Positions 2,587 through 33,308 of a DNA stretch of 33,308 nt are shown one piece after another (positions within the stretch are counted from its first letter, which is position 1; each line of letters starts with the position of its first letter). The notes beneath the pieces were generated by a model, which saw nothing but the letters and a program-made list of their open reading frames with translations, was not told the origin of the DNA and ran no database searches. The DNA is from Candidatus Micrarchaeota archaeon. GTDB taxonomy: Archaea > Micrarchaeota > Micrarchaeia > Anstonellales > J096. The position numbers were made by a program, and so were the translations under genes. The stretch covers positions 1 to 33,308 of the forward strand of contig JANXEC010000002.1 in NCBI GenBank assembly GCA_025058915.1, in the 5' to 3' direction.

Positions 2587-3768
2587 ATGGAGATTATAGT
2601 AGATCTTCATGTACATGGAAGATATGCAAGAGCAACTTCATCTAGACTAAATCCAAGAACTATGAGGAAGGCTGCTATCCAAAAAGGAGTTAATGTTCTT
2701 GGGACAGGTGATTTTACACACCCAGAATGGTTCAGAGAGTTCAAGGAACTAGAAGAGAGAGATGGCTTGCTGTTCTTAGAGGAATTTCCATTCATGTTGT
2801 CTGTAGAGGTTAATAATGTTTTCGAATACAGAGGGAGGGTTTTGACAATACATAATGTGATAATCACAGATTCTTTGGAATCTGCAGAGCAGATATGTGA
2901 TTATCTGGGTAAATACGGAGATCTAAGTAAGGACGGTAGACCTAATATAAATCTTTCTATGGTTGAAATGATGGATTCGTTGAAATCTATGAATCCCAGA
3001 ACAGAGGTATTTGCAGCTCATATCTGGACACCTTGGTTCTCGATACTTGGAGCAAGAAATGGTCTTAGATCGATATATGAAGTAATAGATAGTAGATTGT
3101 TAGCTGTGGAGACAGGTCTGAGTGCGGATCCTGAGATGACATGGAAAACTCATGCAGGTGATTTTCCAATCATCTCTAATTCAGATGCACACAGTCTAGA
3201 AAACATAGGCAGAGAGGCTACCAAGATAGAGGTAAGTGATCTGTCCTACCAGAGTATAATAAGGAGTATCAGAGAGAGGAAGATACTGAAAACCTATGAA
3301 TTCTACCCTCAGGAAGGGAAGTACTACTACGATGGCCATAGGAATTGTGGAGTGAGTCAACATCCTGATGAATCTATTTCTAATCTGAACATATGCAAGA
3401 AATGTGGTAGAAAACTAACCATAGGAGTTCTGCACAGATCTATGGAATTGAAAGACAACATTAGCAGACCTCATCAGAAATTCCAATATATAATCCCTCT
3501 CAAATCAATCCTTTCATATGTGATGGGGGTGGAGGAATCTAGTAAGAGAGTTGAGAGAGAATACGAGAGAATCATAAAGGTGTATGGAACAGAGATGAAT
3601 GTTTTTGATAGTTATAGTAGAGAGATATTAGTGAGTCTGTTTGGTTCGGAGATGGGTAACAAGATGTATAGGATTCTGAGCGGTGGTATAGATTGGGAAC
3701 CTGGATATGATGGTTTATATGGAAGGTTTAGACTCAAGGAGCAGAATCTCCTAGAGCAACTGAAATGA
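2587..3768 (+). CDS. PHP-domain protein of the endonuclease Q (EndoQ) family with a C-terminal Zn-finger-like CxxC
   Basis: N-terminal PHP metal motif DLHVHGRYARATS. Also GTGDFTHPEW, GRPNINLS, AHIWTPWFS, ETGLSADPEM, ISNSDAHSLENIGRE, CKKCGRK and a terminal GYDGLYG. This pattern matches what I recall of Pyrococcus EndoQ and its homologs. Confidence 0.6.
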   Translation: MEIIVDLHVHGRYARATSSRLNPRTMRKAAIQKGVNVLGTGDFTHPEWFREFKELEERDGLLFLEEFPFMLSVEVNNVFEYRGRVLTIHNVIITDSLESAEQICDYLGKYGDLSKDGRPNINLSMVEMMDSLKSMNPRTEVFAAHIWTPWFSILGARNGLRSIYEVIDSRLLAVETGLSADPEMTWKTHAGDFPIISNSDAHSLENIGREATKIEVSDLSYQSIIRSIRERKILKTYEFYPQEGKYYYDGHRNCGVSQHPDESISNLNICKKCGRKLTIGVLHRSMELKDNISRPHQKFQYIIPLKSILSYVMGVEESSKRVEREYERIIKVYGTEMNVFDSYSREILVSLFGSEMGNKMYRILSGGIDWEPGYDGLYGRFRLKEQNLLEQLK

Positions 3769-4135
3769 TGAATACACTTATGTAGAGCTGTGCAACTGTT
3801 GGTATTCTGTGTTTGTATACAAGAGTTGTGGCTAATATCATAAGGACATAGATAATCAGGAACACAGGGAGATATGTAATATCCTGAAGCAGACTTATAG
3901 AATTAGCTATGTGTAGATAGTCTGATCTATCGACGAAATTTCTACGTATGGCTACAGATATCGTCTCATAGACTATGAACGTGATGGTGAGAGAGACTAT
4001 CCATAGGATATATCTATCTGTGTTTACAAGCACTAGGGATGTTATGAGTAATGACAATGGAAGATTAGGAACAACGTATCGGAGATCGTAATATACTAGT
4101 ATTACCAATGATATAATCAGTAGTTCATATATCAT
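3734..4135 (-). CDS. Small 5-TM membrane protein, possibly a minimal A24-type (prepilin/preflagellin peptidase-like) aspartyl peptidase
   Basis: Five hydrophobic segments. YYDLRYVVPN after TM1 resembles the first Asp motif (D-[LF]-R-x3-[IV]-P-[ND]) of the A24 family. ALGD at the C-terminus resembles the GxGD motif. ATGA overlap with the upstream dUTPase-family gene. Confidence 0.35.
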   Translation of the reverse strand: MIYELLIISLVILVYYDLRYVVPNLPLSLLITSLVLVNTDRYILWIVSLTITFIVYETISVAIRRNFVDRSDYLHIANSISLLQDITYLPVFLIIYVLMILATTLVYKHRIPTVAQLYISVFIISVALGDSAP

Positions 4136-4617
4136 TTACCTCTCTTTGTCCTGTATATTCCTGAATACTCTCTGAAGCTTGACCTAGATCTTAGGAATAC
4201 TATCTGCCCTACTCTAGCATTTCTGTATATTTCAATCCCATTTGGATTGATCACATGCATCAGCATTTCTGCGTATCCTTCAAATCCAGGATCAAACAGG
4301 CCTGAATATATAGCAACACCATTCCTCAGCAATGATGTTCTGGGGAAGAATATACCTAAAGTTCGATTATCTATCTTAAGATACTCGTTCAGAGATATCT
4401 TGTATACTCCTTGTGAGAGATGAGCCTTGTCATCAAACTCTATCTTCAGAGTCTGGGCTAGTTTTCTATGTTTATTATCAAAATCTACCCTGCCATATCC
4501 TATGAAATAATAAACATCTTTCAGAGTCAGATCGATACCAGCCTGCTGTTCCTGAATCTCTCTATCTATATATTCAGATATGATTCTATCAAAAACCTTC
4601 GATGGTGGAACTATCAT
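4132..4617 (-). CDS. dUTPase / dCTP deaminase family protein (short archaeal MJ1102-like type)
   Basis: AGIDLTL, FFPRTSLLRNGV, GLFDPGFEGY and ARVGQIVF are the trimeric dUTPase-fold motifs. The 161-aa length fits the short archaeal type. Confidence 0.7.
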   Translation of the reverse strand: MIVPPSKVFDRIISEYIDREIQEQQAGIDLTLKDVYYFIGYGRVDFDNKHRKLAQTLKIEFDDKAHLSQGVYKISLNEYLKIDNRTLGIFFPRTSLLRNGVAIYSGLFDPGFEGYAEMLMHVINPNGIEIYRNARVGQIVFLRSRSSFREYSGIYRTKRGK

Positions 4618-8169: not shown

Positions 8170-8325
8170 ATGAATAAATTTGTAAAGGCTAGGTTGATAG
8201 GTGCACGTGCTCTACAGATCTCTTGTGGGGCTCCTTCTATGATAGATGAGAAGGTAAGAGATTCTGTAGAGTTGAGTTATATTGAGTTCCAGAGATCCAA
8301 GATTCCTCTAGAGGTGAGAGAATGA
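8170..8325 (+). CDS. rpoK: DNA-directed RNA polymerase subunit K (Rpo6/RpoK), 51 aa
   Basis: Below the ORF-track size cutoff and found by hand. The sequence is MNKFVKARLIGARALQISCGAPSMIDEKVRDSVELSYIEFQRSKIPLEVRE. The R-x-IGARALQIS-x-GAP core and the K-IP-x-x-[VI]-R C-terminus are the RpoK/Rpb6 signature. Confidence 0.85.
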   Translation: MNKFVKARLIGARALQISCGAPSMIDEKVRDSVELSYIEFQRSKIPLEVRE

Positions 8326-12884: not shown

Positions 12885-12893
12885 TTTTAAAAA
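12885..12893 (-). promoter_or_regulatory. TATA box (TTTTTAAAA on the minus strand) for gltX, overlapping the stop codon of the upstream gene
   Basis: Centred 26 nt upstream of the minus-strand ATG at 12863. It covers the TAA (12887-12889) of the 274-aa ORF. Confidence 0.45.
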
Positions 12894-13711
12894 TTCAGCT
12901 CTTCATATATCTTGTTCTTCTCCTCTCTGTTTAGAGACCGGAGAGAGAAGATCAGTAGTTTTGATAGAGATAGTGCCTGGTCTGTATCGTAGAATGCAAG
13001 AGATGATAGAAAAACCTGTTTGATCTGCTCTATCATACTATTCTTATTCTCATCGATTTTGCTCTGAATTGCAGGTATGCTTGTTCTGTTCATGAGTTTG
13101 GTCATCTCAACTATCTTCTTATCTATTCTGAATATTTCTTTGAATTTCTCCTTGATAATCTTGGGTAGAAGATTTGGATTGTAGCCTAGAGGAAATATAG
13201 AATTATACATCATATAACTTATCACTTCAGGAGAATATTTTAGATCGTTCTCTATAACAAACACCAATCCTTGGATCTTCATTATGTTATCTTCAACGTC
13301 ATCAGATTCAAACACATCATCAATCATCTTCTGTATCTGTGATTTCTCCAAAACTCTCCTCTTGGCTCTGAAATAATCATATATCAAATACACAAGAGGA
13401 TCATAGTCTCCAACTGCGTATGGTCTTACTTCATTCAGCAATACCTCTATGTAATCCTTGAGCTCTGGACTTTGCTGGATCCTGTCTAACAAGATATTCG
13501 CCTCCTGTATTGTTATTCTTAACTCTACAAGTATCTGAACAGCCCTCTTGATGTATTCCTGATCTAGATACCTCTGAAATAGTTTTATGTTTATGATCGC
13601 AAGATGTAGTTTATCTTCTTCTGTTAGATGCTTGGATTTTCTGAATGCATTCTCTGCTAATTGCAAATATCCATTAGCATACAACACCTTTGCAACTATA
13701 TTATATATCAT
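12887..13711 (-). CDS. All-helical hypothetical protein, third gene of the SMC-like ATPase operon
   Basis: No recognisable motifs and predicted to be helical. ATGA overlap with the upstream ATPase gene (13708-13711). Confidence 0.6.
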   Translation of the reverse strand: MIYNIVAKVLYANGYLQLAENAFRKSKHLTEEDKLHLAIINIKLFQRYLDQEYIKRAVQILVELRITIQEANILLDRIQQSPELKDYIEVLLNEVRPYAVGDYDPLVYLIYDYFRAKRRVLEKSQIQKMIDDVFESDDVEDNIMKIQGLVFVIENDLKYSPEVISYMMYNSIFPLGYNPNLLPKIIKEKFKEIFRIDKKIVEMTKLMNRTSIPAIQSKIDENKNSMIEQIKQVFLSSLAFYDTDQALSLSKLLIFSLRSLNREEKNKIYEELNF

Positions 13712-15957
13712 TCTGTATCCACCTTCGTATAGTTAATCGATGTATCTCTAGACATATCTCTATTCAGAGATATAACCATGTTCCATGATATATTTGTTTT
13801 GATTTTTTCATCGTGAGTTATGATAATGAACTGATCTATGTGCTCTAGATAGAGTTTATTGATATTATCAATCAAAGAATCTATCGCGCTTTCGTCTAGG
13901 TTATGGGTAGGTTCATCAAGTATCATTACTCTTAGGTTCTTTGTGACTAGTGATAGAATTGCCATTCTCAGGGCCAAAGCATACATAGTCTTCTCACCTC
14001 CACTCAATCTATCTGCAGTAACCTGATTATTACCTGATCTTATGACTAGAACATACCCTGAGTCTTCTACCTCTATCTTAGGATCTGAATACACACCAGA
14101 ATAGTACAGACTGTTCCAGTACATACTGAAATACATGTTGATCTTATTTATTAGATTCCTTCTCCTCCTGTTCTGTAGATCTTCCATCCTCATGTGTATC
14201 TCAATTAGCTCCTGAACTATCTTCCTGAGTATCTCGAGTCTTTCGCGTTTGGAATTGTATTCATTCACCTTTGTCTTCAGATAGTTTAGCCTCTGTTTGG
14301 AATCATCTATACTCTTATCATCTCTTTTCAGAGTTTCTTTGATTGCTCTGAGCTCACTACTGATCTTTACATATTCAGAATTCCAGGTGTTGTATCTGTT
14401 CTCATCTATATCTAATCTTTTGATCTCATCCAGGAGCTTTGCCCTTTCGAGACTCAGATCTTCCTTTCGCTTCCTCTTCTGTTCTATAAGATGTTTTGTT
14501 TCACTGAGAGATCTAAGTCTTTCTCTCTCACCTATTAAATCTTTCTCAGATACTTTAGGTTCGTCTGGAATATTGATCTGTCTCAATCTCTCCTGCCTAT
14601 TGTTGAGTTCGGTCTCGATGGATTTCAGTTTCTCATCTATAGCTCTGATGCTTGATTCTGAGTCTGATATTTTTGACTTAAGTGTTTCTATGGTAATATC
14701 TATCTCTCGGATTCTGTTCTGTGTATTTGAGTTCATTCTCTCAAGTTCCGAGTATCTGATGTATCCTAATACTGCAATTGGTAGGGCGATTGCAATTAGA
14801 TATGGATTAATAGAGGATAGGAGCAGGACAATCATAATACTTATCCCATATATCTGTATATTCCTATCCTGCAGAGGAGGAACAATCTTCAATTCTGATC
14901 TCTGTGTCTGCAGAGTTTGGATATTCTGAGTGTCTTGATCTATCTGCCGATAGATATTTTCTCTCTGAGATTTTAGTTCTTTGATAGATGATTCTATGTT
15001 CTCTACCTCTGTCTCTAACCTTATTCTTTCTTCTTTCAACTTTGTTATGTTCTCTATCGTAGAGCTGATTAATTCTATTTCTCTATCTATCTCCAGAATT
15101 CTTTGTTCTATTCTTTGAAATCCTCCTAATCTCTCTATGTCTTCTGTTATTCTCTTTATTTCCTCATCAATACTTTTGATCTGACCATCTATCCGGTTCA
15201 GTGTCTGTTTGGCATTCAAATACTTCTGATACCTATCTGTGATATTGCTCTCTTCTTTCTTCATCTGATCATATCTCACAGCAAGTTCGTTGTATTGTTT
15301 CTGATGTATCTCCCTATCGTTCTCATGGCTCTTGAGTCTCTCTAACTCTCTCTGGTATTCCTCTAGATCTTTTTTGTAACTATCTATGTTATTCGATAGC
15401 TCTTTGATTCTCTTCTCCCCTTCATTTATGATTCTTTTCAACATATCGATTCTACCTTGAAATTCCTCTATACCGAGTATTCTATCTAAGTATTCTTTGA
15501 TCTGTTTTGGCTGTAGATCCATTATCTGGTATATCCCATCCTGTGCTCCATAGAAAACATTTGCAAATATAGACTCATCTACGTTCAGTAATTTCAATAC
15601 TATATTTCTTACCTCATTATCATTCTCAGATATCTTCTTGTCATCAACATACATAATCACTCTTTCTGGTTTGTTCCTGGACAGAATTCTGGTTATTTTG
15701 CATTTCCTATTATTGATTGCGAATTCCACCTCCACAGTGGCAGTATCAGATCCATCTCTGATATATTCCTTCTTTGTTGTCCTATTTATTTTTCTGTATC
15801 CCTCCCTTATCTCTCCAAACAATCCATAAACTATTCCTTCTATTATACTAGTCTTCCCTGATCCATTCTTACCATGTATGAGTATCTTACCCTTTCTGAA
15901 TTGGATCTGTGTGTCCTTATGGGACATCCAATTCTTAAGTGTGATCTTTGTTATCAT
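13708..15957 (-). CDS. Rad50/SbcC/SMC-superfamily ABC ATPase with a long coiled coil interrupted at its midpoint by a hydrophobic helical hairpin
   Basis: Walker A HGKNGSGKTS (aa 28-37), signature LSGGEKT, Walker B VMILDEPTHNLD and H-loop IIITHD. About 600 aa of E/K/R/I/L coiled coil lie between the head halves. The hairpin IQIYGISIMIVLLLSSINPYLIAIALPIAVLGYI spans aa 367-400 of 749. There is only one Cys, so no CxxC hook. Confidence 0.75.
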   Translation of the reverse strand: MITKITLKNWMSHKDTQIQFRKGKILIHGKNGSGKTSIIEGIVYGLFGEIREGYRKINRTTKKEYIRDGSDTATVEVEFAINNRKCKITRILSRNKPERVIMYVDDKKISENDNEVRNIVLKLLNVDESIFANVFYGAQDGIYQIMDLQPKQIKEYLDRILGIEEFQGRIDMLKRIINEGEKRIKELSNNIDSYKKDLEEYQRELERLKSHENDREIHQKQYNELAVRYDQMKKEESNITDRYQKYLNAKQTLNRIDGQIKSIDEEIKRITEDIERLGGFQRIEQRILEIDREIELISSTIENITKLKEERIRLETEVENIESSIKELKSQRENIYRQIDQDTQNIQTLQTQRSELKIVPPLQDRNIQIYGISIMIVLLLSSINPYLIAIALPIAVLGYIRYSELERMNSNTQNRIREIDITIETLKSKISDSESSIRAIDEKLKSIETELNNRQERLRQINIPDEPKVSEKDLIGERERLRSLSETKHLIEQKRKRKEDLSLERAKLLDEIKRLDIDENRYNTWNSEYVKISSELRAIKETLKRDDKSIDDSKQRLNYLKTKVNEYNSKRERLEILRKIVQELIEIHMRMEDLQNRRRRNLINKINMYFSMYWNSLYYSGVYSDPKIEVEDSGYVLVIRSGNNQVTADRLSGGEKTMYALALRMAILSLVTKNLRVMILDEPTHNLDESAIDSLIDNINKLYLEHIDQFIIITHDEKIKTNISWNMVISLNRDMSRDTSINYTKVDTE

Positions 15958-16691
15958 ATCTTTCTAATCGACAGAGAGAATTTATTAAAGTATAGGTTTG
16001 CTCCTAGTATTATCATAAAAGGTAGTAAGAAAAAAGTGTTTATGAACAGCATCACGTATCTTGAGATCTCCAGAGGGAATAATAGATCTAATAAGAACAA
16101 TATAGCTATGTAAAATACTATCCCCACTACTGCATACATAAACGGATATAATGCTAATTCTCTCCTAAATAGCAATAATTTCCTGATAGCAGTGTCAAAG
16201 TCAACTCCCTCTATGACGATTGCATACGGTATGAATAGAATTACATAATTCATTATCAAGAATACAACAGATATGTAAAAAGTATCAATAGACAACACAT
16301 ATGCAAATATAGTGATATTGAATTGTATCAGGAACCATACTAGAAGGAATTTATACACCTCTGGATAGGAATTGAGGATCTGTTTTATGAATAGATTCCT
16401 AGAGAGTTCTTCACTCCTGTACTCTCTGGTCGCAATTGTCAGAGTCACAAAAACTAATGTGTATATTCCCATAACTAGCAAAAACACCATAAGAGGTAAT
16501 ACCAATCCGAATAGATCTATCTCAGTTATCTTTGATATCCTCAAGAATATTCCTGTAACTGAAATATAAATATAATCATCAAACAGAAACAGAAGCACTA
16601 GAATACTAAGCAGAATCACAATACCTGATAGAGCCACTAGATCTAATCCTGTTCTGTATACATTCCATGAACTCCTGAGCTCGAAGAGCAT
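15954..16691 (-). CDS. Polytopic membrane protein (about 6-7 TM), first gene of the SMC-like ATPase operon
   Basis: Hydrophobic throughout. ATGA overlap with the downstream ATPase gene (15954-15957). Confidence 0.65.
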   Translation of the reverse strand: MLFELRSSWNVYRTGLDLVALSGIVILLSILVLLFLFDDYIYISVTGIFLRISKITEIDLFGLVLPLMVFLLVMGIYTLVFVTLTIATREYRSEELSRNLFIKQILNSYPEVYKFLLVWFLIQFNITIFAYVLSIDTFYISVVFLIMNYVILFIPYAIVIEGVDFDTAIRKLLLFRRELALYPFMYAVVGIVFYIAILFLLDLLFPLEISRYVMLFINTFFLLPFMIILGANLYFNKFSLSIRKI

Positions 16692-19150: not shown

Positions 19151-19161
19151 TTTTTTAAAAA
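19151..19161 (+). promoter_or_regulatory. TATA-like box TTTTTTAAAAA for the six-gene membrane-protein operon; its T6 run may also terminate the S19e operon
   Basis: Centred about 28 nt upstream of ATG 19184. It is the only such box I see before the six abutting genes. Confidence 0.45.
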
Positions 19162-19183: not shown

Positions 19184-20722
19184 ATGGGGGTAATAGATAT
19201 AATTTTGCTCAATATACCAATGCTTGCAATAGGTTTAGGTATTGGTATATCTATATCGGTAATGATGTATTTCTATAATGTTATATTCAACAAAGACCAA
19301 GCAAAAGCACTCGATACAACCAAAGATGTTCTCATAATTGTACTATATATAGCCATGCTGTTTGTTATAGATGGATTCTACGGAATGTTTCTATCGAGTT
19401 GGTTAGGGATAAGTGCAACATCTTCAAGTGGCCTCAGAATCGCAGAGGCGGTTATATACAAAGACATAGACAAATTCAGAGAGACATTGTTCTATATCTA
19501 CATAACTGATTTCCTGTTCAGTCTAGCAGGATCTTTCAATGCTCACTTACATGTTGGCCTGAACCCAGAGCAGAGCAAACTATCTGGATCATCCATAATC
19601 AGAGGATTGGCAGGTCCATTTGCCAGTATGATGGGAGGGAAGGCTGCAGTGGATCCGTACAAAGCAGACATATCGATCGATCTTATGGGTAAGATGGGAT
19701 CTAGTATTCAGTTGCTCTACAATGCATCATATGGATTGTTCCTGGTATTAGTATATAAATACATCAAATTAACAGTAATCACCTATTTGCCTCTGATTAT
19801 GTCTATATTTATACCCATGGCCCTGGTGTTGTTGTTCATCCCTATCACTAGAAAGGTAGGTCTCACTATCATAGGTTTGGCAATAACCCTCTACTATCTC
19901 TTCCCAGTCTTCATTATATACTCAGACACTGTTCTTAGGAGGATGCCTGATTTTGATCATAGATACATATCATCGTACATATCCCCTACAATCGTAGAAT
20001 TTCTAGATAGATCCTATTCACCTAACAATCCATCACAGAGTATAGGATATAAATATGCATTTCTGGAGAGGGAAAGAAGAATTGCAAGTGTGATGAATGA
20101 TTATGTGTTCCTGGAGCAAGATACTAGTAACATTATGGAACCTGATAAGAATAATATTTTAGCCAACAGAACCAAAGAGGGCATGGGTATTATGTATGTA
20201 TATTCCTTCGTTGATGCACAATCTGTATGTGAGAGGAATGTTTATGACACAGAGGTTTGTAAGGAGTACCAAACACAGAATGTAGGGGATTTCAGATCAG
20301 AAAACGCATTAGCTCCTGTGGGATCTTTCTACATGAATGTTGTAAAGTATTCTGGATTGGTTAGGATGAGTGCTGGGTTGGCAGAATTGTCTAAGGTTAT
20401 CAAAGGAACTACTCCCCTGACTATGATCATAGGGAGTATGCTGGGGATCGCTTTGAACATTCTCTCATTTGCACTGTATGCAAGTATGCTCCTACCTATA
20501 CCTGGTCTATCGCAGATACTCTATGGATTCTTGGGTATTCCATTCTTACCATTCCTACTCTTCAAGACTGCACTGGAGGCAGCTCTGATAGCATACAAAG
20601 TTATTATATATGGATCAATTACTATCTTTTTAGATATATTTCTCATAATAACAGGCTACAGAGCAGTGGCATCTGTGATAGGGGCCGAACAGAGAATATT
20701 AGGATTGGAGAAGGTGTTGTAG
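19184..20722 (+). CDS. Paralog A (512 aa) of an unassigned polytopic membrane protein family
   Basis: About 9-10 hydrophobic segments. The core block LLFIPITRKVGLTIIGLAITLYYLFP is at aa 216-241 (nt 19829-19906). A hydrophilic loop of more than 100 aa contains a C-x9-C pair (nt 20228-20260). The C-terminus is GAEQRILGLEKVL. Confidence 0.85.
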   Translation: MGVIDIILLNIPMLAIGLGIGISISVMMYFYNVIFNKDQAKALDTTKDVLIIVLYIAMLFVIDGFYGMFLSSWLGISATSSSGLRIAEAVIYKDIDKFRETLFYIYITDFLFSLAGSFNAHLHVGLNPEQSKLSGSSIIRGLAGPFASMMGGKAAVDPYKADISIDLMGKMGSSIQLLYNASYGLFLVLVYKYIKLTVITYLPLIMSIFIPMALVLLFIPITRKVGLTIIGLAITLYYLFPVFIIYSDTVLRRMPDFDHRYISSYISPTIVEFLDRSYSPNNPSQSIGYKYAFLERERRIASVMNDYVFLEQDTSNIMEPDKNNILANRTKEGMGIMYVYSFVDAQSVCERNVYDTEVCKEYQTQNVGDFRSENALAPVGSFYMNVVKYSGLVRMSAGLAELSKVIKGTTPLTMIIGSMLGIALNILSFALYASMLLPIPGLSQILYGFLGIPFLPFLLFKTALEAALIAYKVIIYGSITIFLDIFLIITGYRAVASVIGAEQRILGLEKVL

Positions 20723-21811
20723 ATGGGTTCTATCCTAGGGAGTCTAGGTACATTCACCATGACATTAATAGGAATAGTAGTAGTGTATATGGTATTACTT
20801 TATGTTCTATCTAGACTGGCTAAGAATGAGGAGTGGAACCAGAATTTCAAGATAGAATTCAAACAGCTCCTCCTGAGTATTATGATATATGTAAGTATAT
20901 TTGGAATATCAAACGCAGTGCATCAACTGTATTCAACGTATTCTGTAGGTACAGATCTTTTCAGTTTCATATCAACCCAACTCATAATGATGTTGAAGAA
21001 CCTGCAATTCTATGCCTCTCATCTCATGCTATCTGCTAGTATGATGAAAATGTATGGAGAGTTTACAAATATAGGTTATCCACATGGATCATATGGATCT
21101 GCAAGGTTAGTAGCTTTCCCTGGGATTGATCTGTTGGCATCTGTAACGTTTCAGATAAGAGATATCATAATGATAGCTACGGGTGGATTGGTGGTTCAGT
21201 CCGTGGCTATGGATCTGATCAGAAACTTAGCCCTTACAGTGGTATTACCCATAGGCGTTATACTTAGAATATTACCCATCACGAGACAGTTTGGTAATGA
21301 GATGATAGGTCTGAGTGTAGCGATGTACCTCATATTACCTCTGATGTATTTTGTTTTTCTTAACACAATTGCAGAGATCAGCGATGATAGAGGAGGATTC
21401 ATGAAGAGATTCACAAACCAATATCTAGGTCTGAATTCTAATGACGTAATAGAACCAGACAAGATATTTGTGAACCTCATGAATAATAAATCCAATAATG
21501 GCATTGAACAGGGAGAGAGAACTCTGAAGGACTATTTCGATACATACTACAAGAGAGAGATCGACAGAGAGATTCAGGAGAAAACATCAACTCCTGATGA
21601 AATATACAGAACTTTTGAAGTCTACATGACAATCAGTCTGATCCAATCTAGCTTTGTGATAACTCTACCCATACAGTTCCTATTCATGTATTCTCTGTAT
21701 CTATATGCATCTGGATTTCTAGTGTTTGGTTTCGGTTTGCCTGGATTTGCTCTAGCAATAACACTGACCGCTGCAAAGAGCATAAGAGATTCACTAGAGA
21801 GGTTGGTATAA
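20723..21811 (+). CDS. Paralog B (362 aa) of the same membrane protein family
   Basis: The ATG abuts the stop of A. The core block LRILPITRQFGNEMIGLSVAMYLILP is at nt 21263-21340. The C-terminus is KSIRDSLERLV. There is no Cys. GGTG lies 6 nt upstream of the ATG. Confidence 0.85.
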   Translation: MGSILGSLGTFTMTLIGIVVVYMVLLYVLSRLAKNEEWNQNFKIEFKQLLLSIMIYVSIFGISNAVHQLYSTYSVGTDLFSFISTQLIMMLKNLQFYASHLMLSASMMKMYGEFTNIGYPHGSYGSARLVAFPGIDLLASVTFQIRDIIMIATGGLVVQSVAMDLIRNLALTVVLPIGVILRILPITRQFGNEMIGLSVAMYLILPLMYFVFLNTIAEISDDRGGFMKRFTNQYLGLNSNDVIEPDKIFVNLMNNKSNNGIEQGERTLKDYFDTYYKREIDREIQEKTSTPDEIYRTFEVYMTISLIQSSFVITLPIQFLFMYSLYLYASGFLVFGFGLPGFALAITLTAAKSIRDSLERLV

Positions 21812-21812
21812 G

Positions 21813-23015
21813 ATGAACCCTATCTTCCAAGCGATCATGCCTGTGGTGTTGCTATCTATTCTTATATACATAATCGCCCAATTGGTTGCTAGAGTGCTGA
21901 ATAAACCAGATGTGGTTGGATATATGAATTCCGAACTACTTGGAATATTGATATTTTTGACTATATTAGTTACATTGGTTCATGTGATAGATCTAATTGT
22001 TTATGGAAGTGTTTCGATTCTCAATCCAACTGCAAAACAAGACATATGTGATGCAAACGGAATATCCATACACAGATGTCATGTTACTATTGCTGGATAT
22101 TTCTTAGAGAGTATTCTGAGAGAACTTACGGATTACTATATACAACTGAATTCTCTATCGTTGATTGTAAGTTTTGTCAAGTCACTCTATGGAGTGAAGG
22201 CAATTCAGGGAGATAAGTTTGTGAAACTGAATTTCATGGGATTTGTACACATACCCGAATCCTACATAGATCCATTGATAGGTTTGACACAGAGTATGTT
22301 ACAGTTTGGGATAGCACAGTTTATGATATTATGGTACATTACATCACCCCAATTCTTCGTTGGATTCTTAAGTCTAGGTTTGGTATTGAGATTGTTTGCA
22401 CCAACCAAGAGTGCTGGTGGTTTGATAATAGCTCTGGTGTTAGGGCTATATTATGTATTTCCTATGGCATATGTTTTGATAGATGTTCATTACAGAAATG
22501 CATACGATGGAACATATGGTTTTAACAAGATCAATACTTTTAGAATCACAGATCATCTCCTATCAGCATTTGGATTACCATTTTCTAGTGAAATAGAAGG
22601 GGCTATAAATGCCCTGAGAGAGGTACAGAGATCATATGACGGGTCTCAGTCAGGCACTTCCAATCCAGATTCTGCAGCATCATCAGTAGCAGGATCTATA
22701 TCATATCTATCTAGTCTAGTAGCATTGATTATGAAAATATCTGTGATAGTGAGTGCTCTCTTCATACCTCAATTGCTCTCTTTCATACCTGGAATTATAA
22801 CAGGATATACTCTGTTGGCAGATGTGTCCCCACAGGTTTTCTTGGGGAGTGTGGTGAGAGTACCTGTGATACTTCTAAACATATATACTGAGTTCTTCCT
22901 TATCTTTGCAGTACTGATCTACATATCTCTGATCAGTACTATTGCTTTTATTAAAACATTCTCTCCTATATTGGGTGGTGACGTTGAGATTGCTGGTATT
23001 ACTCGTTTTATTTAG
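21813..23015 (+). CDS. Paralog C (400 aa) of the same membrane protein family
   Basis: A 1-nt spacer follows B. The core block LRLFAPTKSAGGLIIALVLGLYYVFP is at nt 22386-22463. A C-x9-C pair (CDANGISIHRC) is present. The C-terminus is GGDVEIAGITRFI. Confidence 0.85.
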   Translation: MNPIFQAIMPVVLLSILIYIIAQLVARVLNKPDVVGYMNSELLGILIFLTILVTLVHVIDLIVYGSVSILNPTAKQDICDANGISIHRCHVTIAGYFLESILRELTDYYIQLNSLSLIVSFVKSLYGVKAIQGDKFVKLNFMGFVHIPESYIDPLIGLTQSMLQFGIAQFMILWYITSPQFFVGFLSLGLVLRLFAPTKSAGGLIIALVLGLYYVFPMAYVLIDVHYRNAYDGTYGFNKINTFRITDHLLSAFGLPFSSEIEGAINALREVQRSYDGSQSGTSNPDSAASSVAGSISYLSSLVALIMKISVIVSALFIPQLLSFIPGIITGYTLLADVSPQVFLGSVVRVPVILLNIYTEFFLIFAVLIYISLISTIAFIKTFSPILGGDVEIAGITRFI

Positions 23016-24252
23016 TGTATTTGTATATGCATCTAGTTGCGATCAGGGTGGATTTATCAGTGAGGAGTGTCTAGAGAGAGATATATTTGGAAAATTCGAC
23101 CAGAATTCATTTGAAGCAGCTATCAAGAAGATATTTCAAGATACCAAAACCAGCACTATGAACATGATAGAGAATTTTATAGTTAATGTGATAGCTCCAT
23201 ACACAGTATGTAAATCCACCAATCCGGTGGATGCAACCACACTACTCAACACCACAGCAGTTATAGTATTCATATCGATGATGCTAGTGTTTATACTGAA
23301 TGGAGTTGCATCTATGCTTGGTAGTCAGTGGAGGATCTCTGTACTAGAGGAGGGATTACAGGGATTGATATCTATCCTCGTGGTTCTGATTATAGTGTCT
23401 GTTCTGAATTACTACACTACTAACAATATATTCCAAGAATCCAAGAAGTACATAGTGAATCTGATTGTTAATTTCTCGTTCTTCACAATGCTACTGAAGA
23501 CTCTTGAGACTATGATGATTGGATTATCAAACCTAACTTTGCCATTTGGACCTCCCGATGCCAGAGGGATATTCAGTATATCCTTCTCCCAACTCTTCAC
23601 AATCATCTTCAAATCTCTAGATGTGATAAAGGGATTCTTCAGTCTAGGAATTCTGGAATACGTGTTTAAATTGTTCATCCTATGTATCGGACCTCATGTG
23701 ATAATACAGATATTACTCCCTGTAGGCATACTCATGAGAGCATTCTACTTCACAAGACCAGGAGGAAATGTGTTGGTGGGTATATCAATAGCCTTCATAA
23801 TGATATATCCTATCATAATGTATGTATATTCAAAAATCTACAACAGTATTTCGATGATATGGGATGTATACTTAACAGAATCTGTGTATAGACTTTTGGT
23901 AGGTATTATGGGAGGAATAGCTATTGTATTAATACCTCTAGCCATAAAGGCATTCATAGGCATGACCTTTAACCAAATAGCAAACATTGCAGGTATAGCA
24001 AACATATGGATGGCAATCAGGAGAAATGTAGAGATAATTAATATGAATTCATTTGGAATAGCATCAGTATTGAATCTAACTCAAATAGTACCTGTTCTGT
24101 ACTATCTGGTATTTGGATATCTCCAGCTCGCACTGATCTTCGGAGCAATACTAGGTCCTCTAGCCCTATACCTCACAGTATCCTTAACAGGTCAGATAAG
24201 CAGAGCTCTTGGTACTGAGATAAACATAGCTGCTCTGTCGAGGTTGATATAA
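22978..24252 (+). CDS. Paralog D (about 424 aa) of the same family, with an N-terminal signal peptide and lipobox-like Cys
   Basis: The track start at 22942 is TTG. The next in-frame ATG is 72 codons downstream, so a non-ATG start is needed (candidates GTG 22975/22978, TTG 22984/22990). That would give (M)TLRLLVLLVLFSVFVYASS|C. The core block MRAFYFTRPGGNVLVGISIAFIMIYP is at nt 23734-23811. A C-x9-C pair (CDQGGFISEEC) is present. The C-terminus is GTEINIAALSRLI. Confidence 0.75.
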   Translation: MTLRLLVLLVLFSVFVYASSCDQGGFISEECLERDIFGKFDQNSFEAAIKKIFQDTKTSTMNMIENFIVNVIAPYTVCKSTNPVDATTLLNTTAVIVFISMMLVFILNGVASMLGSQWRISVLEEGLQGLISILVVLIIVSVLNYYTTNNIFQESKKYIVNLIVNFSFFTMLLKTLETMMIGLSNLTLPFGPPDARGIFSISFSQLFTIIFKSLDVIKGFFSLGILEYVFKLFILCIGPHVIIQILLPVGILMRAFYFTRPGGNVLVGISIAFIMIYPIIMYVYSKIYNSISMIWDVYLTESVYRLLVGIMGGIAIVLIPLAIKAFIGMTFNQIANIAGIANIWMAIRRNVEIINMNSFGIASVLNLTQIVPVLYYLVFGYLQLALIFGAILGPLALYLTVSLTGQISRALGTEINIAALSRLI

Positions 24253-24253
24253 T

Positions 24254-25639
24254 ATGAGCATCTCACATGATAAACCCAACATAGATGAGAATGCAATACA
24301 GATGAATGTAGACCAGATGATAGGTTTGTTATCGAGTACATGCACAGATCCTATCAAAGATAGATGTAGAATGGAGGATCAGACCATAGCAGAGATATTC
24401 GAATCTATCAAACCTCAACTGGGATTGTTCAGTAAAGCTATAGACGAGGCTGTTGACAAGGCTATAGGGAATCTCTACAGACTAGGAGCAGGAGGCATGG
24501 GGATATTCGAAGATAAATACTGTGGATACGTACAGAATCTTGGTTATATTACATCGATGATAGGTTGGGGAATGATAGTGGTATTGTCTTACATTTTAAT
24601 AGACTTCATTGCTAGGATCATAGGGAACTCAAAATACTCTGCAATAGCAAGGAGAGAGATATTTGAAATAATAATACTCATCCCGCTCCTACTGGCATTG
24701 CTCAATCTACCTTGTGTGTTGAGGTTGAATGATAATGTTCCTATACACTCAAAGTCTCTTCTATATATACATTCTGCTATTATTTCCTCTATGATATCCA
24801 TAATACCGATCAGTTACTATGGAGCCAGTGTTGCAATGCATTCAATAACGATAGTCCAGAACCTAGGGGGAGGTGCACCTCAGACGGCTCCTCTTGCAGC
24901 CCAATACTATGAATCTGCTCTATCTCTGGCCAAGCAGGCAGCAACATTTCTCACTCTATCTTTCATATGGGTAGGTACATTTGGATTTATGTTTGATATA
25001 TTCACATATGGATTTGTGAAGTACCTACTACCAATAGCCATAATTCTAAGATCAATTCCATTCACAAAGAGTCTAGGGGGTGGTCTGATTGGATTGATCA
25101 TAGCAACTAATTTATTCATCCCTATCATCCTATCTGTGAACTACGAACTCATAAAGATGTTTGGGCCAGGTTATTTCTACTACTCTGGAAACAATGTTAA
25201 GTTCAAGTTCAATCCATGGATTGAGATGGTTATTCATATATTTGCAGGTTTTGTGATCCTCATGTCAATACTTCAGTTGTTGATGGGATTCAGATTGTTT
25301 ATAGACGTAATCAATGCAATTCAGAGATTTAGGGTCTGGCAATCGATAAGAGAAGGATTTAGGAGATTGCTAGGGTCTCTGGTAGGTCAAGGTGGAGGAG
25401 TGGCATCCACTCTCATAGATATATTCATGGTTATGAGAGTTCTATCGGTACCTACGATCAGAACCTTTGCATTCCAAATACCATTACTGCTGCTGATTGC
25501 ATTCATCGTAGTTGCTGCAATCATATTCAACATTCTCTTACCAACACTCACATTCCTGTTCTTGACATCTACTATTAAGTATCTCTCATCTATGTTTGGT
25601 GAGGAATTTGATCTTGCTAACCTCACGAGGTTGATCTAG
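24254..25639 (+). CDS. Paralog E (461 aa) of the same family, with an N-terminal soluble extension of about 95 aa
   Basis: A 1-nt spacer follows D. The core block LRSIPFTKSLGGGLIGLIIATNLFIP is at nt 25046-25123. A C-x7-C pair (CTDPIKDRC) is present. The C-terminus is GEEFDLANLTRLI. Confidence 0.85.
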   Translation: MSISHDKPNIDENAIQMNVDQMIGLLSSTCTDPIKDRCRMEDQTIAEIFESIKPQLGLFSKAIDEAVDKAIGNLYRLGAGGMGIFEDKYCGYVQNLGYITSMIGWGMIVVLSYILIDFIARIIGNSKYSAIARREIFEIIILIPLLLALLNLPCVLRLNDNVPIHSKSLLYIHSAIISSMISIIPISYYGASVAMHSITIVQNLGGGAPQTAPLAAQYYESALSLAKQAATFLTLSFIWVGTFGFMFDIFTYGFVKYLLPIAIILRSIPFTKSLGGGLIGLIIATNLFIPIILSVNYELIKMFGPGYFYYSGNNVKFKFNPWIEMVIHIFAGFVILMSILQLLMGFRLFIDVINAIQRFRVWQSIREGFRRLLGSLVGQGGGVASTLIDIFMVMRVLSVPTIRTFAFQIPLLLLIAFIVVAAIIFNILLPTLTFLFLTSTIKYLSSMFGEEFDLANLTRLI

Positions 25640-26618
25640 ATGGATCAGTACCAAGTAATAGCAATAGGGATTGCATTCTTGGGTGTTATCATAGGCATTA
25701 TATTGTATCAGATCTCAAAGATCTTCAACCTAGGAGGTCTGAAGAGAATATCCGAGATATTCATATGGGAAGCTGGAGTTACGATACTACTGGCACTATT
25801 CATATTTCTCATAGTAGATAGGATGAATAGTTTTCTATTCGATGTATCCGAGATGATGTATAAAAGTATAGGTAGAGATATTTCCCAGATAACTCCAAAA
25901 ACACCTATGGCTGCTGCCAAGGCAGTCTTGAAGGAACTCATAAATAGTTGTTATCTCAGTACATATGGAATACTAGTACTGAACAGGATCGTACTTGAAT
26001 CCTTAGGATCCTCGATATCGGATTTGGGTGCAGAGGTCGGTAGGCTTCCTACTGCAACTGTGGCATATGCTCTGATATATATTTCAGATCTGCTGAGAAT
26101 AATGTTCTTCCTGCTATGGACCAGTATAGCAATGCTTAAGATCTTCCTATTCTTCTCAGCATACTACCCATTTCTGATCATGTTAGGTATAATTCTGAGA
26201 GCATTTGAACCTACAAAGTCTATGGGAGCATATCTGATCAGTCTAGGCATAGGATTATATATTGTATTACCAACAGCCTATACAGTAGGATTGGTCCTAA
26301 ATTATAATGATTTACTATGCAAATTGCCTGAATCTTTCAGAGGTGATCAGACACTTCAGATGGGGGTGGCAAATGCAATAGATATAGGCGAGAATGCAAA
26401 GAGTTTCATGGGATTTAGTAGTATGTTAGTTATGTTGTCTTCTGGTTTTATAATATTACTGAATCCTAACCTTATGGTATCTCTCATATACTCTGTCATG
26501 TCTCTGGCTCTGATTACTCCTCTGATAGCTTTCATAATAGCCCTGTCCTTTGTGAACATATCTACAACTGCTCTTGGAGGTAGAATAAGTGAAGTTGGTA
26601 GAGGATTGTTCAGATTGG

Positions 26619-26623
<5 letters not shown>
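25640..26623 (+). CDS. Paralog F (327 aa) of the same membrane protein family
   Basis: The ATG abuts the stop of E. The core block LRAFEPTKSMGAYLISLGIGLYIVLP is at nt 26195-26272. The C-terminus is GGRISEVGRGLFRLV. Confidence 0.85.
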
Positions 26624-31500: not shown

Positions 31501-31506
31501 CGAAAA

Positions 31507-33308
31507 ATGAAAAAGATGTCTGCAAAGAAGATAGGAGCTGTGTTAGGAGCAGCTCTAGTGGCTAGCTCTGCATTTGGAGCAGTATCTTTTGAGAACACAG
31601 AGCTAGTCTCAAATAATGGTCAGGTAGTAGCAAAGGTAGTAGTAGGATCCAAAGCACAACCATCTGATGGAGTGGCTGCAGCAAAGATAGCATCTTACCT
31701 AGCAAGCAGAGCATTCTCCAAGAGACAGGTATCTGCAGAGTTAGAGGGTCAGGCAGTATGTAGAATCACAAATGGAACAAGCGATGCAAGATGTGAAGTT
31801 GTTAACAAGAGTGTAGATCTAACCATAATAATGCCTGGTCTGAGGAGTAGGCAGGTTGTTCAGCTAAACCCTCTGATAGGAGAGACACTAGATACAGAGC
31901 TAGGAGACAGAGATGCACCAGGATCTAGTGATTCATTGAATGTCCTAACAAAGTTATGGGATGACTTTGCACACCCAGATCAGAATCAGGTAGGATCATC
32001 AGGTCTATTTGGAATAAGTAGTTCATCACCATATGATGCATTTGTAATAGACTATAGAAACTTTGATGGATTCAAAATACACACTGTTGCAGGTAGAGGA
32101 ATACAGAACGTTCAGGAGAAGGAGAGAGTGTATGTTAAAGGAGAAACCTACTATGATGATGGGCAGGTAAAGTTTAGGCTCAGAGATCTAATATACTCTG
32201 CAGTGTTTGGACCTGACAACAGTGGATTACCTCTATGTCCTGGAGATGTACAGAAAGATTATAATAGCTGTGAACCTAGCAAGAGAATAGAGGCATCTAG
32301 AGCACAGATCAAGTTCATGGGACAGAATTGGTATATAACAAAAGTAGACATACCTGTACAGAGTTCAGGAGCTCCTACTCAATCTCAACAAATATACACT
32401 GTATCTGGTGCAGAGATACATTTAGCAAAGGAGTCAACATATGGAATTATAAATGTAGGAGAATCGTTGTCAACAGAGGATGGACAGTTGAGAGTGGTAT
32501 TAGATGATATAAACAAGAACGATATCCAGAACAACCCTGCAATTATATCTGTAGTCGATAGGAACAACAATACATTAGTGCAGGATCAGATAAGACCTGG
32601 AGAGACAAAGACTCTACAGCTAGGAGGTGGTAGAACGATTAAGGTTCACGTGTATCAGACTGCACCTGGTACTGTGCTATTAGCAAAATGGGCAGAGTTG
32701 GCAATTCTCAAAGATTCAATAGTGTTGAGACACGGAGATGAGTTCTTGGATGACCAGAACACAGTGTATAGTGTCGGTATAGGATTCACTCACAGAAGAG
32801 CATCCTCATCTCTATCTCCATTCACAGCAACTCATCTAAAAGAGATAGTAGTATATGCAACAGGTCTAAATGAAGCAATGAAGAAAGGTGATAAATATCA
32901 TCTAACAGACGTCCAGGGATACAAAGTGTTTGAACTAACATACGATGGACTAACAAATCCTTCTATGAACAACATAAATCTTAGATACTCTACAAGTAGT
33001 ATTACTGGAACATTAGCAGACGGCAATCTATATTCATTTGATGTAACTGAATATGTAGAAGTCCAACTAGGTCAACCAGTAAGAGTAACAGCAAGAGCAG
33101 GAGGGGGAAATAATAATCCTGATACAACTTTCGAGACCAAGACATTATACTTTGTCACAGCTAACCTCCCTAGTTCTACAGTAAAGGTAGGTGATCTTCT
33201 GGTAAGAGATAGTGGAAGATGGTATTATGTAGATAATCCTGGAACTATTACATTGGATTATAGACCTGCAGGTAATATATATGGAAAATTGTTATTCAAT
33301 ACTAGTTT
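31507..33308 (+). CDS. S-layer protein (Methanococcales/Thermococcales-type N-terminal domain), 5' 600 codons; continues beyond the window
   Basis: Absent from the ORF track because no stop lies in the window. Hand translation gives MKKMSAKKIGAVLGAALVASSAFG|AVSFENTELVSNNGQVVAKVVVGSKAQPSDGVAAAKIASYLAS... The signal peptide plus the VVVG-x5-D-x2-AA-x-IA motif is typical of archaeal S-layer N-domains. The rest is beta-rich T/V/G/N-rich sequence with two Cys pairs and N-x-S/T sequons. Confidence 0.8.
   Translation, partial: MKKMSAKKIGAVLGAALVASSAFGAVSFENTELVSNNGQVVAKVVVGSKAQPSDGVAAAKIASYLASRAFSKRQVSAELEGQAVCRITNGTSDARCEVVNKSVDLTIIMPGLRSRQVVQLNPLIGETLDTELGDRDAPGSSDSLNVLTKLWDDFAHPDQNQVGSSGLFGISSSSPYDAFVIDYRNFDGFKIHTVAGRGIQNVQEKERVYVKGETYYDDGQVKFRLRDLIYSAVFGPDNSGLPLCPGDVQKDYNSCEPSKRIEASRAQIKFMGQNWYITKVDIPVQSSGAPTQSQQIYTVSGAEIHLAKESTYGIINVGESLSTEDGQLRVVLDDINKNDIQNNPAIISVVDRNNNTLVQDQIRPGETKTLQLGGGRTIKVHVYQTAPGTVLLAKWAELAILKDSIVLRHGDEFLDDQNTVYSVGIGFTHRRASSSLSPFTATHLKEIVVYATGLNEAMKKGDKYHLTDVQGYKVFELTYDGLTNPSMNNINLRYSTSSITGTLADGNLYSFDVTEYVEVQLGQPVRVTARAGGGNNNPDTTFETKTLYFVTANLPSSTVKVGDLLVRDSGRWYYVDNPGTITLDYRPAGNIYGKLLFNTS

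Follow-up and report, generated by a model that had tools for sequence, protein, structure and literature searches.

Results

A cluster of six adjoining membrane protein genes

The window analyzed here is a stretch of 33,308 nucleotides (contig JANXEC010000002.1 of assembly GCA_025058915.1, positions 1 to 33,308, forward strand) from a Candidatus Micrarchaeota archaeon, whose group the NCBI taxonomy places in the phylum Microcaldota, kingdom Nanobdellati, within DPANN. At positions 19184–26623 it holds a cluster of about 7.4 kb, in which six genes on the same strand, here called A to F, abut or overlap, and all six encode polytopic membrane proteins. On the evidence presented below, both the protein family and the kind of multi-paralog membrane system that they represent are new and seemingly restricted to one DPANN phylum.

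Each gene carries one of six paralog types, and all are read on the + strand. Gene A (19184–20722) encodes 512 amino acids (aa) and has the largest insert of the set, ~160 aa with two cysteines, in a variable outer loop after the fourth transmembrane (TM) helix; its C-terminal motif is IGAEQRILGLEKVL. Gene B (20723–21811; 362 aa) ends in a degenerate version of this motif, KSIRDSLERLV. Gene C (21813–23015; 400 aa) ends in LGGDVEIAGITRFI, which is nearly invariant across the phylum, and its product is identical to the protein NZ908_00350 of a Candidatus Micrarchaeota archaeon metagenome-assembled genome (MAG) at NCBI; proteins A, C and F all have identical counterparts among the “hypothetical proteins” of Candidatus Micrarchaeota MAGs. 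Gene D (22978–24252; 424 aa) ends in LGTEINIAALSRLI. Gene E (24254–25639; 461 aa) is the sister paralog of D, has an N-terminal extension of ~95 aa with conserved cysteines and ends in FGEEFDLANLTRLI. Gene F (25640–26623; 327 aa), which we used for structure prediction, has the scaffold in its minimal version and ends in LGGRISEVGRGLFRLV. From A to F, the intergenic gaps are 0, 1, −38, 1 and 0 nucleotides (nt), and this abutting and overlapping arrangement indicates translational coupling.

The 38-nt overlap of D with C depends on where D starts. A mechanical list of open reading frames begins it at the first in-frame TTG (22942), giving 436 aa, but GTG 22978 is the likely start and the TTG is disfavored because of the DNA and the N termini of the orthologs (MxTLRLLVLLVLF…). 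From this GTG, D opens with a signal peptide-like sequence (MTLRLLVLLVLFSVFVYASSC), followed by a small cysteine-bearing outer domain and then the scaffold. The gene coordinates and sizes given in an earlier note, which was made from this DNA alone, all hold, and its length of ~424 aa for D and its C/D overlap are confirmed through this start.

The 36-nt spacer before gene A contains an AT-rich, TATA-like box, TTTTTTAAAAA (19151–19161, +), 23–33 nt upstream of the ATG at 19184. A TATA-like box before the first gene had been noted earlier. Its position plausibly suits an archaeal promoter for a message with a short leader or none, but in a genome of 62% A+T such a box is weak evidence. Scans for bacterial-type promoters and terminators were uninformative for an archaeon, and no tRNA genes or Rfam features were found across the window. 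The GC content of the cluster (0.37–0.39) lies within that of its surroundings (0.34–0.43).

The six proteins are paralogs

A block of 26 residues, covering the end of TM3, a basic turn predicted to be cytoplasmic and the start of TM4, occurs once in each protein: in A as LLFIPITRKVGLTIIGLAITLYYLFP (19829–19906), in B as LRILPITRQFGNEMIGLSVAMYLILP (21263–21340), in C as LRLFAPTKSAGGLIIALVLGLYYVFP (22386–22463), in D as MRAFYFTRPGGNVLVGISIAFIMIYP (23734–23811), in E as LRSIPFTKSLGGGLIGLIIATNLFIP (25046–25123) and in F as LRAFEPTKSMGAYLISLGIGLYIVLP (26195–26272), all on the + strand. T7, [RK]8, G11 and P26 of the block are invariant among A to F, and R2 is present in five of the six. A six-frame translation of the whole window yields exactly six matches to the block pattern, one per gene, and residue-shuffled proteins yield a mean of 0.0015, a number to be read with the pattern's derivation from these same sequences in mind. 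In the family alignment, R187 of the F block is invariant, and G183, R/K193, G196 and P211 are conserved in at least 90% of members.

Pairwise BLAST among A to F gives only weak matches centered on this block. We therefore compared profiles, using a seven-sequence ortholog alignment for each gene and hhalign on all 15 pairs. Twelve pairs reach probabilities of 94–98.8% (E 1e-8 to 1e-17), in most cases over the 175–225 columns from TM1 through the core block. The A–C match is limited to a 56-column core. That of D with E extends over the full length (368 columns), and this is the sole pair for which whole-length paralogy is demonstrated; for the others, paralogy covers the stretch from TM1 through TM4, together with the short motif at the C terminus. 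When 140 F-like sequences are combined into a profile, it matches A to E at 98.2–99.6%. As a control for hydrophobic bias, a nine-sequence profile of VirB6, an unrelated polytopic family, scores below 1% against all family profiles. By profile comparison, then, A to F are true paralogs, far beyond chance. The earlier note had claimed paralogy along the whole length of all six; the relationship stands, but its full-length extent applies to D and E only. These two also depart from the simple hydrophilic loop of about 20 aa that had been ascribed to them after the core block, as further hydrophobic segments follow it.

The six types keep their order across the phylum

An exhaustive HMMER search with the F profile returned 684 clusters at 50% identity (E ≤ 1e-3), 155 of them at E ≤ 1e-10, and the majority were matched over their full length. 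All named members belong to Micrarchaeota, Anstonellales, Bilamarchaeaceae or Ca. Gugararchaeum adminiculabundum. The family is thus large and phylum-wide, and not a one-off. Word-index searches recovered only 7–12 relatives and, when queried with the six-paralog alignment, only orthologues of A together with a distant member, P0014. Pattern scans of genomes and metagenomes gave three and six loci, and related loci come from Candidatus Anstonellales and Micrarchaeota MAGs; our view of the distribution rests mainly on the exhaustive hidden Markov model (HMM) search and the names of its clusters.

Genes in the related loci (L numbers) were typed with one HMM for each of the six paralogs or by one-to-one BLAST. 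The full set, in the order A-B-C-D-E-F, is present in the window and in L001–L004, L011–L013, L016, L026, L028, L030, L031 and L033 (the last from Ca. Gugararchaeum). L014 has B to F and the cut end of A in the same order, L006 and L008 have six called genes of matching sizes (used as orthologues), and the partial series on the cut contigs L005, L025, L029 and L032 retain the order. No loss, gain or shuffling of a paralog was seen in any locus examined. In the most distant loci, whose proteins are ~25% identical to those of the window, HMM typing of some genes is less sharp, but the C-terminal motifs still agree with the gene positions. Neighboring genes touch or overlap in the window and in 6 of 10 other loci measured, and wider gaps occur in L026, L028, L030 and L033. 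One of these, the 268-nt B/C spacer of L028 (9733–10000), is unusual for this operon and contains a direct repeat of ~34 nt (…CATGTTGTTTTCGTGAGTGTTTGGTTGTATGCGT… twice).

The six genes are a conserved unit, because the genes that flank them change between lineages. The fixed order indicates that the six-fold duplication is ancient and was complete before the sampled lineages diverged. The operon is ancient, self-contained and native. The last of these properties had been proposed from base composition, and to the match in GC content can now be added housekeeping flanks that differ by lineage and the lack of any family match among the viral contigs of IMG/VR. The array is thus found outside identifiable mobile elements.

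Topology and anatomy of the subunit

AlphaFold2 predicted the structure of F with a pLDDT of 74 from a 12-sequence alignment and with a pLDDT of 87.1 and a pTM of 0.82 from a 140-sequence alignment. The model is all-helical, with helices at residues 4–29, 32–76, 89–129, 138–187 and 190–220, short helices of low confidence, and further helices at 258–274, 276–311 and 317–326. The long helix at 138–187 includes a partly hydrophobic segment at 138–164.

Several concordant lines suggest a subunit with its N terminus outside, five TM helices and its C terminus inside. In L014 and L016, D and E start with classic signal peptides (…LLACASFAQ…) before the extension that precedes TM1, and this places the N terminus of the scaffold outside. 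In these two distant lineages, the signal peptide of E (N-terminal region at 4329–4500 in L014 and 8621–8800 in L016) is of the classic cleavable kind; the clade of the window has none (24254–24540) and has kept the cysteine-bearing N-terminal extension. The 10-residue core turn is strongly basic across 140 relatives (K+R 2.04 versus D+E 0.05), which argues for a cytoplasmic location. In the same relatives, both the hairpin at 61–138 and the post-TM4 loop have an acidic character and bear cysteines, which argues that they are extracellular. The equivalent of F residues 253–274 is probably not a TM helix, because it is short and charged in most members. Finally, two C-type members, P0161 (755 aa) and P0169 (647 aa), carry a cysteine-rich insert of 300–400 aa between TM4 and the last TM helix, and after this insert there is one hydrophobic segment and then the tail. 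The inserts show the post-TM4 loop to be a hot spot for lineage-specific surface domains, and the family fits the earlier description of a conserved scaffold with diversified exposed parts.

Each subunit would thus lead from an outside N terminus through TM1, a short cytoplasmic loop and TM2 into an extracellular helical hairpin of ~100 residues, which would extend TM2 and TM3 above the membrane by an estimated 4–6 nm. TM3 would be followed by the invariant basic cytoplasmic turn, L-R-x-F-P-x-T-R/K-x-x-G, and TM4, then by an outer loop or domain that is acidic, bears cysteines and is variable, at ~20 to more than 400 aa, and by TM5 and an amphipathic C-terminal helix in the cytoplasm, with a sequence specific to each paralog.

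In F, this putatively cytoplasmic helix corresponds to the last 16 codons (26573–26620, +). The equivalent tails, for which the same side of the membrane is predicted, lie at 20672–20719 in A, 22965–23012 in C, 24202–24249 in D, 25589–25636 in E and, in degenerate form, 21776–21808 in B. In the aligned lineages, the tail of C has the consensus LGGD[VI]EI[AG]G[IL][TS][RKH][FLI][IL] and that of E the consensus [FL]G[EQ]E[FI]D[LVI][AGST]NL[TS]RL[IV]; more substitutions occur in the most distant loci. Such paralog-specific motifs are nearly invariant in lineages that share only 25–30% overall identity. A C-terminal motif common to all six had been described before; it is present, but degenerate in B. 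The core turn and the C-terminal helix are the two most conserved elements of the subunit, and both appear to face the cytoplasm.

Searches against known families and structures

Searches of the six proteins against Pfam, NCBIfam, PHROGs and PADLOC returned only noise-level matches. Among 124 family members, Pfam gave no consistent family, and none matched TrbL; eight of the 124 weakly match PF15420 (Abhydrolase_9_N), which describes an N-terminal region that spans the membrane (best E 2.9e-4). The sequences of PDB chains, searched with single proteins and with three profiles, gave no matches. The earlier note's verdict of an unrecognized family is therefore upheld across these databases. No Pfam or NCBIfam domain and no PDB fold match links the proteins to a known superfamily of transporters, insertases or biogenesis factors (MFS, ABC, RND, SecY, YidC, TatC and flippases, among others), and neither profile nor structure searches gave a confident hit to VirB6/TrbL, a transporter or a biogenesis factor. 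The literature searches available to us found no description of the six-gene cluster.

With the better F model, Foldseek returned 334 PDB matches at E ≤ 10, none at E ≤ 0.001. The top matches by E-value were TTYH1/2 (E 0.16, TM-score ~0.2; non-significant). The best full-length TM-scores belonged to TrwI, the VirB6 of R388 (chain 8rt9_F; E 0.8, probability 0.57, TM-score 0.31/0.35), in an alignment with a root-mean-square deviation of 10.6 over 326 columns. TrwI/VirB6 chains recur in searches with both F models, never significantly (E 0.8–2.2, TM-score below 0.4). Against BFVD, the AlphaFold models again had no match at E ≤ 0.001, and a phage “TrbL” came at rank 5. The predicted fold is thus one without a significant match among solved structures.

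A to F were compared with known systems to which they might belong. A VirB6 profile of nine sequences (R388 TrwI and eight plasmid homologues) compared with the family and paralog profiles gave hhalign probabilities of 0.1–0.9%, and the family alignment against TrwI alone gave 0.2%; on these negative comparisons and the absence of TrbL matches, we do not place the family in VirB6/TrbL (Pfam PF04610; MPF_T VirB6). No VirB4 ATPase or other gene of a type IV secretion system (T4SS) was found in the window or in most loci. The T2SSF platform proteins (PF00482) were rejected because no T2SSF domain was detected by Pfam or NCBIfam; a T2SSE ATPase beside the cluster is absent from the window and present only in L028 and L029. 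For the Mce heterohexamer (PF02470), there is no MCE domain, YrbE permease or MceG ATPase in the six proteins or their neighbors. Membership of the TTYH family was set aside on Foldseek values of E 0.16–1.4 and TM-score 0.15–0.21 versus TTYH1–3. A mobile-element, phage or defense family was likewise dismissed, as there are no PHROG or PADLOC matches and no viral contigs, and the flanks are housekeeping genes.

Genes that flank the cluster

In the window, the cluster is preceded on the same strand by genes for a class I tRNA synthetase (Pfam tRNA-synt_1b, seen in the L002 orthologue), ribosomal protein S19e and a PDCD5-like double-stranded DNA-binding protein. It is followed by genes for seryl-tRNA synthetase, RtcB, a sugar epimerase and a methyltransferase and then, 4.9 kb downstream of the cluster as had been stated, by an S-layer-like gene that starts at 31501 and runs off the end of the window (31501–33308). 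The S-layer-like protein has a signal peptide (MKKMSAKKIGAVLGAALVASSAFG) and scores 23.5 bits against PF05124, just below the 23.9 cutoff; its L002 orthologue does match PF05124 (S_layer_C). The flanks vary by lineage, examples being S19e with seryl-tRNA synthetase, an aminotransferase with a PIN-domain gene, nucleoside diphosphate kinase and dCTP deaminase with GatD, and leucyl-tRNA synthetase with RtcB, and in several lineages the operon lies directly 3′ of a ribosomal protein gene. In L026/L027 (contigs of 1.37 Mb and 0.9 Mb), an IS605 OrfB/TnpB gene (Cas12f-like; 2941–4077) is directly upstream.

Two distant lineages have an ATPase next to family members. In L028 (15403–16387) and L029 (5449–6147), a gene for an ATPase of the FlaI/TadA/VirB11 family directly follows gene F, 10 nt away in L028; it matches PF00437 and NCBIfam FlaI (174 bits), and in both loci the contig ends within it. 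The second case is that of P0014, a bona fide distant member of the family (hhalign 98.3%, E 1.8e-14, 300 columns), on an archaeal contig of 12.7 kb (JGI 3300075153). This contig carries a cluster of genes for 356, 341, 363, 269 and 274 aa. Three of them are family-sized, and two genes after these three the cluster gives way to a gene for a 501-aa DUF87/P-loop_TraG/AAA_10 ATPase, followed by uncharacterized proteins of 98, 118, 242, 49 and 779 aa. From its gene content, this contig may represent a Ced- or T4SS-like system linked to the six-paralog family. The absence of an associated ATPase, pointed out earlier, is thus true of the window, but a secretion-type ATPase does adjoin the cluster in two distant lineages.

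In three other distant lineages, giant secreted or membrane-anchored proteins of 806–1917 aa flank the operon (L030, 1–3680 and 11773–19904; L031, 798–4175 and 12087–15491; L033, 14927–20680). Those of L030 and L031, whose sequences we inspected, are cysteine-rich. Pfam finds almost nothing in the giant proteins, apart from faint FG-GAP/Big_7 matches in one and a cupredoxin-like match in another. L030 and L031 also share a homologous single-pass protein of ~245 aa after gene F. The ATPase and giant-protein neighbors point to the cell surface or secretion, as leads and not as statistics.

Other features of the window

Away from the cluster, the − strand of the window encodes a Rad50/SMC-like ATPase of 749 aa (13708–15957), bracketed by two genes without a Pfam match, one for 245 aa (15954–16691) and one for 274 aa (12887–13711). 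The 245-aa gene and the ATPase gene of ~750 aa also occur together in L001 (16238–18539) and L002 (1113–4933), where L002 adds a 273-aa gene, and the trio (12887–16691) looks like a conserved, uncharacterized SMC-like module. The protein encoded at 8322–9158 matches DUF5885 (E 8e-19) and, weakly, DUF7107, and represents another uncharacterized family.

Discussion

The conservation of six types in one order is the main argument that the products of A to F act as one obligate complex with fixed stoichiometry. We propose, at a probability of about 0.45, that they form a single hetero-oligomeric platform or conduit of equal stoichiometry in the cytoplasmic membrane, with an extracellular helical stalk and a VirB6-like role in surface translocation or assembly. 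The six products would join 1:1:1:1:1:1, probably as a ring with pseudo-six-fold symmetry, and together build the stalk beneath the S-layer. In a machine for translocation or assembly at the cell surface, their complex would supply the platform or conduit within the membrane, the part that VirB6-type proteins play in type IV secretion. On the cytoplasmic side, the turns and C-terminal helices of all six subunits would make up a ring onto which a partner docks, plausibly a secretion-type ATPase that is hexameric and, in most genomes, encoded at another site. On the outside, the variable domains would be turned toward the S-layer or the host cell. Both types of ATPase found near family members (FlaI/TadA/VirB11 and DUF87/TraG/AAA_10) come from families whose members generally work as hexamers, and this would agree with a count of six subunits. 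The earlier note had envisaged a hetero-oligomer whose shared C-terminal tail docks a common partner. The hetero-oligomer is strengthened, though not proven, by one-to-one gene order down to ~25% identity. The idea of a shared docking tail needs correction, since the tails differ between paralogs and each is nearly invariant across lineages; such tails fit six distinct positions better than a single shared docking peptide.

Several observations weigh against this proposal. The stoichiometry and ring shape are suggested only by the conserved number and order of the genes. Neither the window nor about 15 of 17 loci have a linked ATPase or other partner, and the two ATPase adjacencies could be chance neighbors. 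The comparison with VirB6 profiles is negative, and none of the Foldseek matches is significant (best E 0.16). Charge bias and the relatives with inserts are the basis for counting five TM helices and for placing the C-terminal tail in the cytoplasm, and the F model itself has a sixth helix, at 258–274, of low confidence.

Pairing of a polytopic platform with a hexameric T2SSE ATPase is known from the T2SSF proteins PilC, TadC and ArlJ and the FlaI/TadA ATPases, and an ATPase of this type directly follows gene F in the one lineage of L028 and L029. A to F differ from those platforms in lacking a T2SSF domain and in having tiny cytoplasmic parts, versus the cytoplasmic helical bundles of the T2SSF proteins.

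Other explanations have been weighed against this one. It is possible that the six proteins are true homologues of VirB6, TrbL, CedA or TedA, extremely diverged and arrayed in tandem as in the Rickettsiales, and that they serve a chromosomal type IV secretion-like or Ced-like system moving DNA or proteins between symbiont and host; we think this unlikely. In A. tumefaciens VirB6, the N terminus is reportedly outside, a large outer loop separates TM2 from TM3 in a plan of five TM helices, and the C terminus is inside, according to the topology model attributed to Jakubowski in 2004. The predicted gross plan of A to F is the same, and they likewise resemble VirB6/TrbL (A. tumefaciens VirB6; TrwI of R388, PDB 7O3V/8RT9/8RTD) in having long helices that project from the membrane. 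VirB6 homo-oligomerizes into the base of a stalk (a pentamer in R388), and tandem VirB6 paralogs exist in Rickettsiales. The recurrence of TrwI/VirB6 among the top Foldseek matches, the phage “TrbL” in BFVD and the VirB4/HerA/TraG-like ATPase with small uncharacterized proteins near P0014 are further points in favor. Known archaeal VirB6-like proteins, CedA and TedA, are likewise detectable only by deep profile comparison with HHpred (PMC9905601), and in epibiotic Patescibacteria a chromosomal T4SS that includes VirB6 is widespread, with virB6 essential for growth in the one strain tested (PMC12102498). Nevertheless, the hhalign probabilities stay below 1% against the MPF_T VirB6 profile and at 0.2% against TrwI, TrbL is matched by 0 of 124 members, and every Foldseek value is non-significant. 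Homologues of VirB4, VirB2 and VirB3 are missing from the window and most loci, and the operon lacks a VirB8 gene as well. Further, six fixed and distinct paralog types contrast with the single gene or variable number of VirB6 systems, and no counterpart of the R-x-F-P-x-T-R/K-x-x-G turn with the C-terminal helix has been described in VirB6. CedA and TedA, the VirB6-like membrane components of DNA import by the Ced and Ted systems, have ~7 TM helices and a conserved N-terminal two-helix hairpin (PMC9905601). Compared by description only, they share with A to F an archaeal origin, a polytopic character and chromosomal encoding, but they are single genes beside a VirB4-like ATPase and a VirB2-like pilin, in contrast to six paralogs that usually have neither. 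VirB6 therefore serves best as an analogy, as it did in the earlier note: the topological plan appears to be the same, and profile and structure comparisons do not establish kinship.

The cluster might instead anchor the S-layer or giant surface proteins, or scaffold their assembly, as a fixed pillar of the envelope and not a transporter. The S-layer-like gene downstream in the clade of the window, the giant cysteine-rich secreted proteins in L030, L031 and L033, the predicted extracellular stalk and the lineage-specific cysteine-rich outer domains would all suit such a pillar. It is nonetheless decidedly unlikely, as the S-layer linkage is restricted to one clade, with other neighbors elsewhere, and the most conserved elements, the core turn and the C-terminal tail, are apparently cytoplasmic, which would be unexpected in a purely extracellular anchor. 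A conduit or extractor for host lipids or other hydrophobic molecules, by functional analogy with Mce1A–F or TTYH, starts from the premise that Micrarchaeota, believed to be unable to synthesize lipids, must acquire those of their membrane. The six mycobacterial Mce1 proteins, A to F, are likewise paralogs encoded in one operon and are thought to form one hetero-hexameric, envelope-spanning helical assembly, an analogy that may extend to stoichiometry. TTYH1/2, which lead the Foldseek matches by E-value (0.16–0.5), have five TM helices, an N-out/C-in topology and an extracellular helical bundle built from TM extensions (PDB 7RTU/7P5J/9G71); their structures contain bound lipid, and disulfides in the outer domain add to the likeness. 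In A to F, long helices, including the partly hydrophobic segment at 138–164, would likewise leave the membrane, and the housekeeping context, with the operon directly after a ribosomal protein gene in several lineages, agrees with such a function. But Mce proteins are single-pass, contain an MCE domain and function together with permeases (YrbE) and an ATPase (MceG); the cluster has no such domain, no YrbE/MlaE-like permease and no ATPase, and there is no homology. The TTYH proteins are eukaryotic and have no sequence similarity to A to F, and the structural matches are non-significant, with TM-scores of ~0.2. We consider lipid uptake of this kind quite improbable. These three ideas (VirB6/CedA homology, a structural anchor and a lipid conduit) refine our proposal rather than exclude it. 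The same cannot be said of six independent paralogous permeases or receptors that differ in specificity and form no single complex. Tandem arrays of transporter paralogs are common, and the outer loops here are diversified; however, exactly six types in fixed order at 15 loci across deep divergence, with no loss, gain or shuffling seen, a gene spacing that indicates translational coupling and a fold that matches no known transporter make this very improbable. Finally, the OrfB/TnpB gene upstream of the operon in one lineage might hint at mobile-element or viral cargo, or the genes might be an annotation artifact. Uniform base composition, housekeeping flanks (tRNA synthetase genes, S19e, RtcB), the lack of PHROG, PADLOC and IMG/VR matches and the conservation of the reading frames across hundreds of clusters refute these origins, whose probability is negligible.

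In general, a role of the six-gene operon in the envelope is probable. DPANN archaea such as Micrarchaeota are ultra-small and host-dependent, and their attachment to hosts and uptake of lipids, nucleotides and further building blocks are poorly understood, with very few molecular candidates. An operon of ~7.4 kb amounts to about 0.7–1% of such a genome, and it is kept in fixed form across the phylum. It is thus a concrete, testable candidate for an envelope machine that is core to the phylum, and it offers structural studies a clean example from nature of a membrane assembly made of six paralogs. More speculatively, and in our view rather unlikely, the cluster may specify a hetero-hexameric envelope machine peculiar to Micrarchaeota, of a new fold, with a cytoplasmic face of pseudo-six-fold symmetry, made up of the invariant basic turn and the six distinct C-terminal helices, that docks a hexameric secretion-type ATPase, and with a stalk and variable cysteine-rich domains that reach the S-layer or host; it would be either independent of type IV secretion in origin or built from VirB6 diverged beyond recognition. 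A machine of this kind would give Micrarchaeota a first molecular candidate for the symbiont–host exchange interface. Should a link to VirB6/CedA emerge, type IV secretion-like machinery would extend to DPANN, in parallel to the T4SS of epibiotic Patescibacteria.

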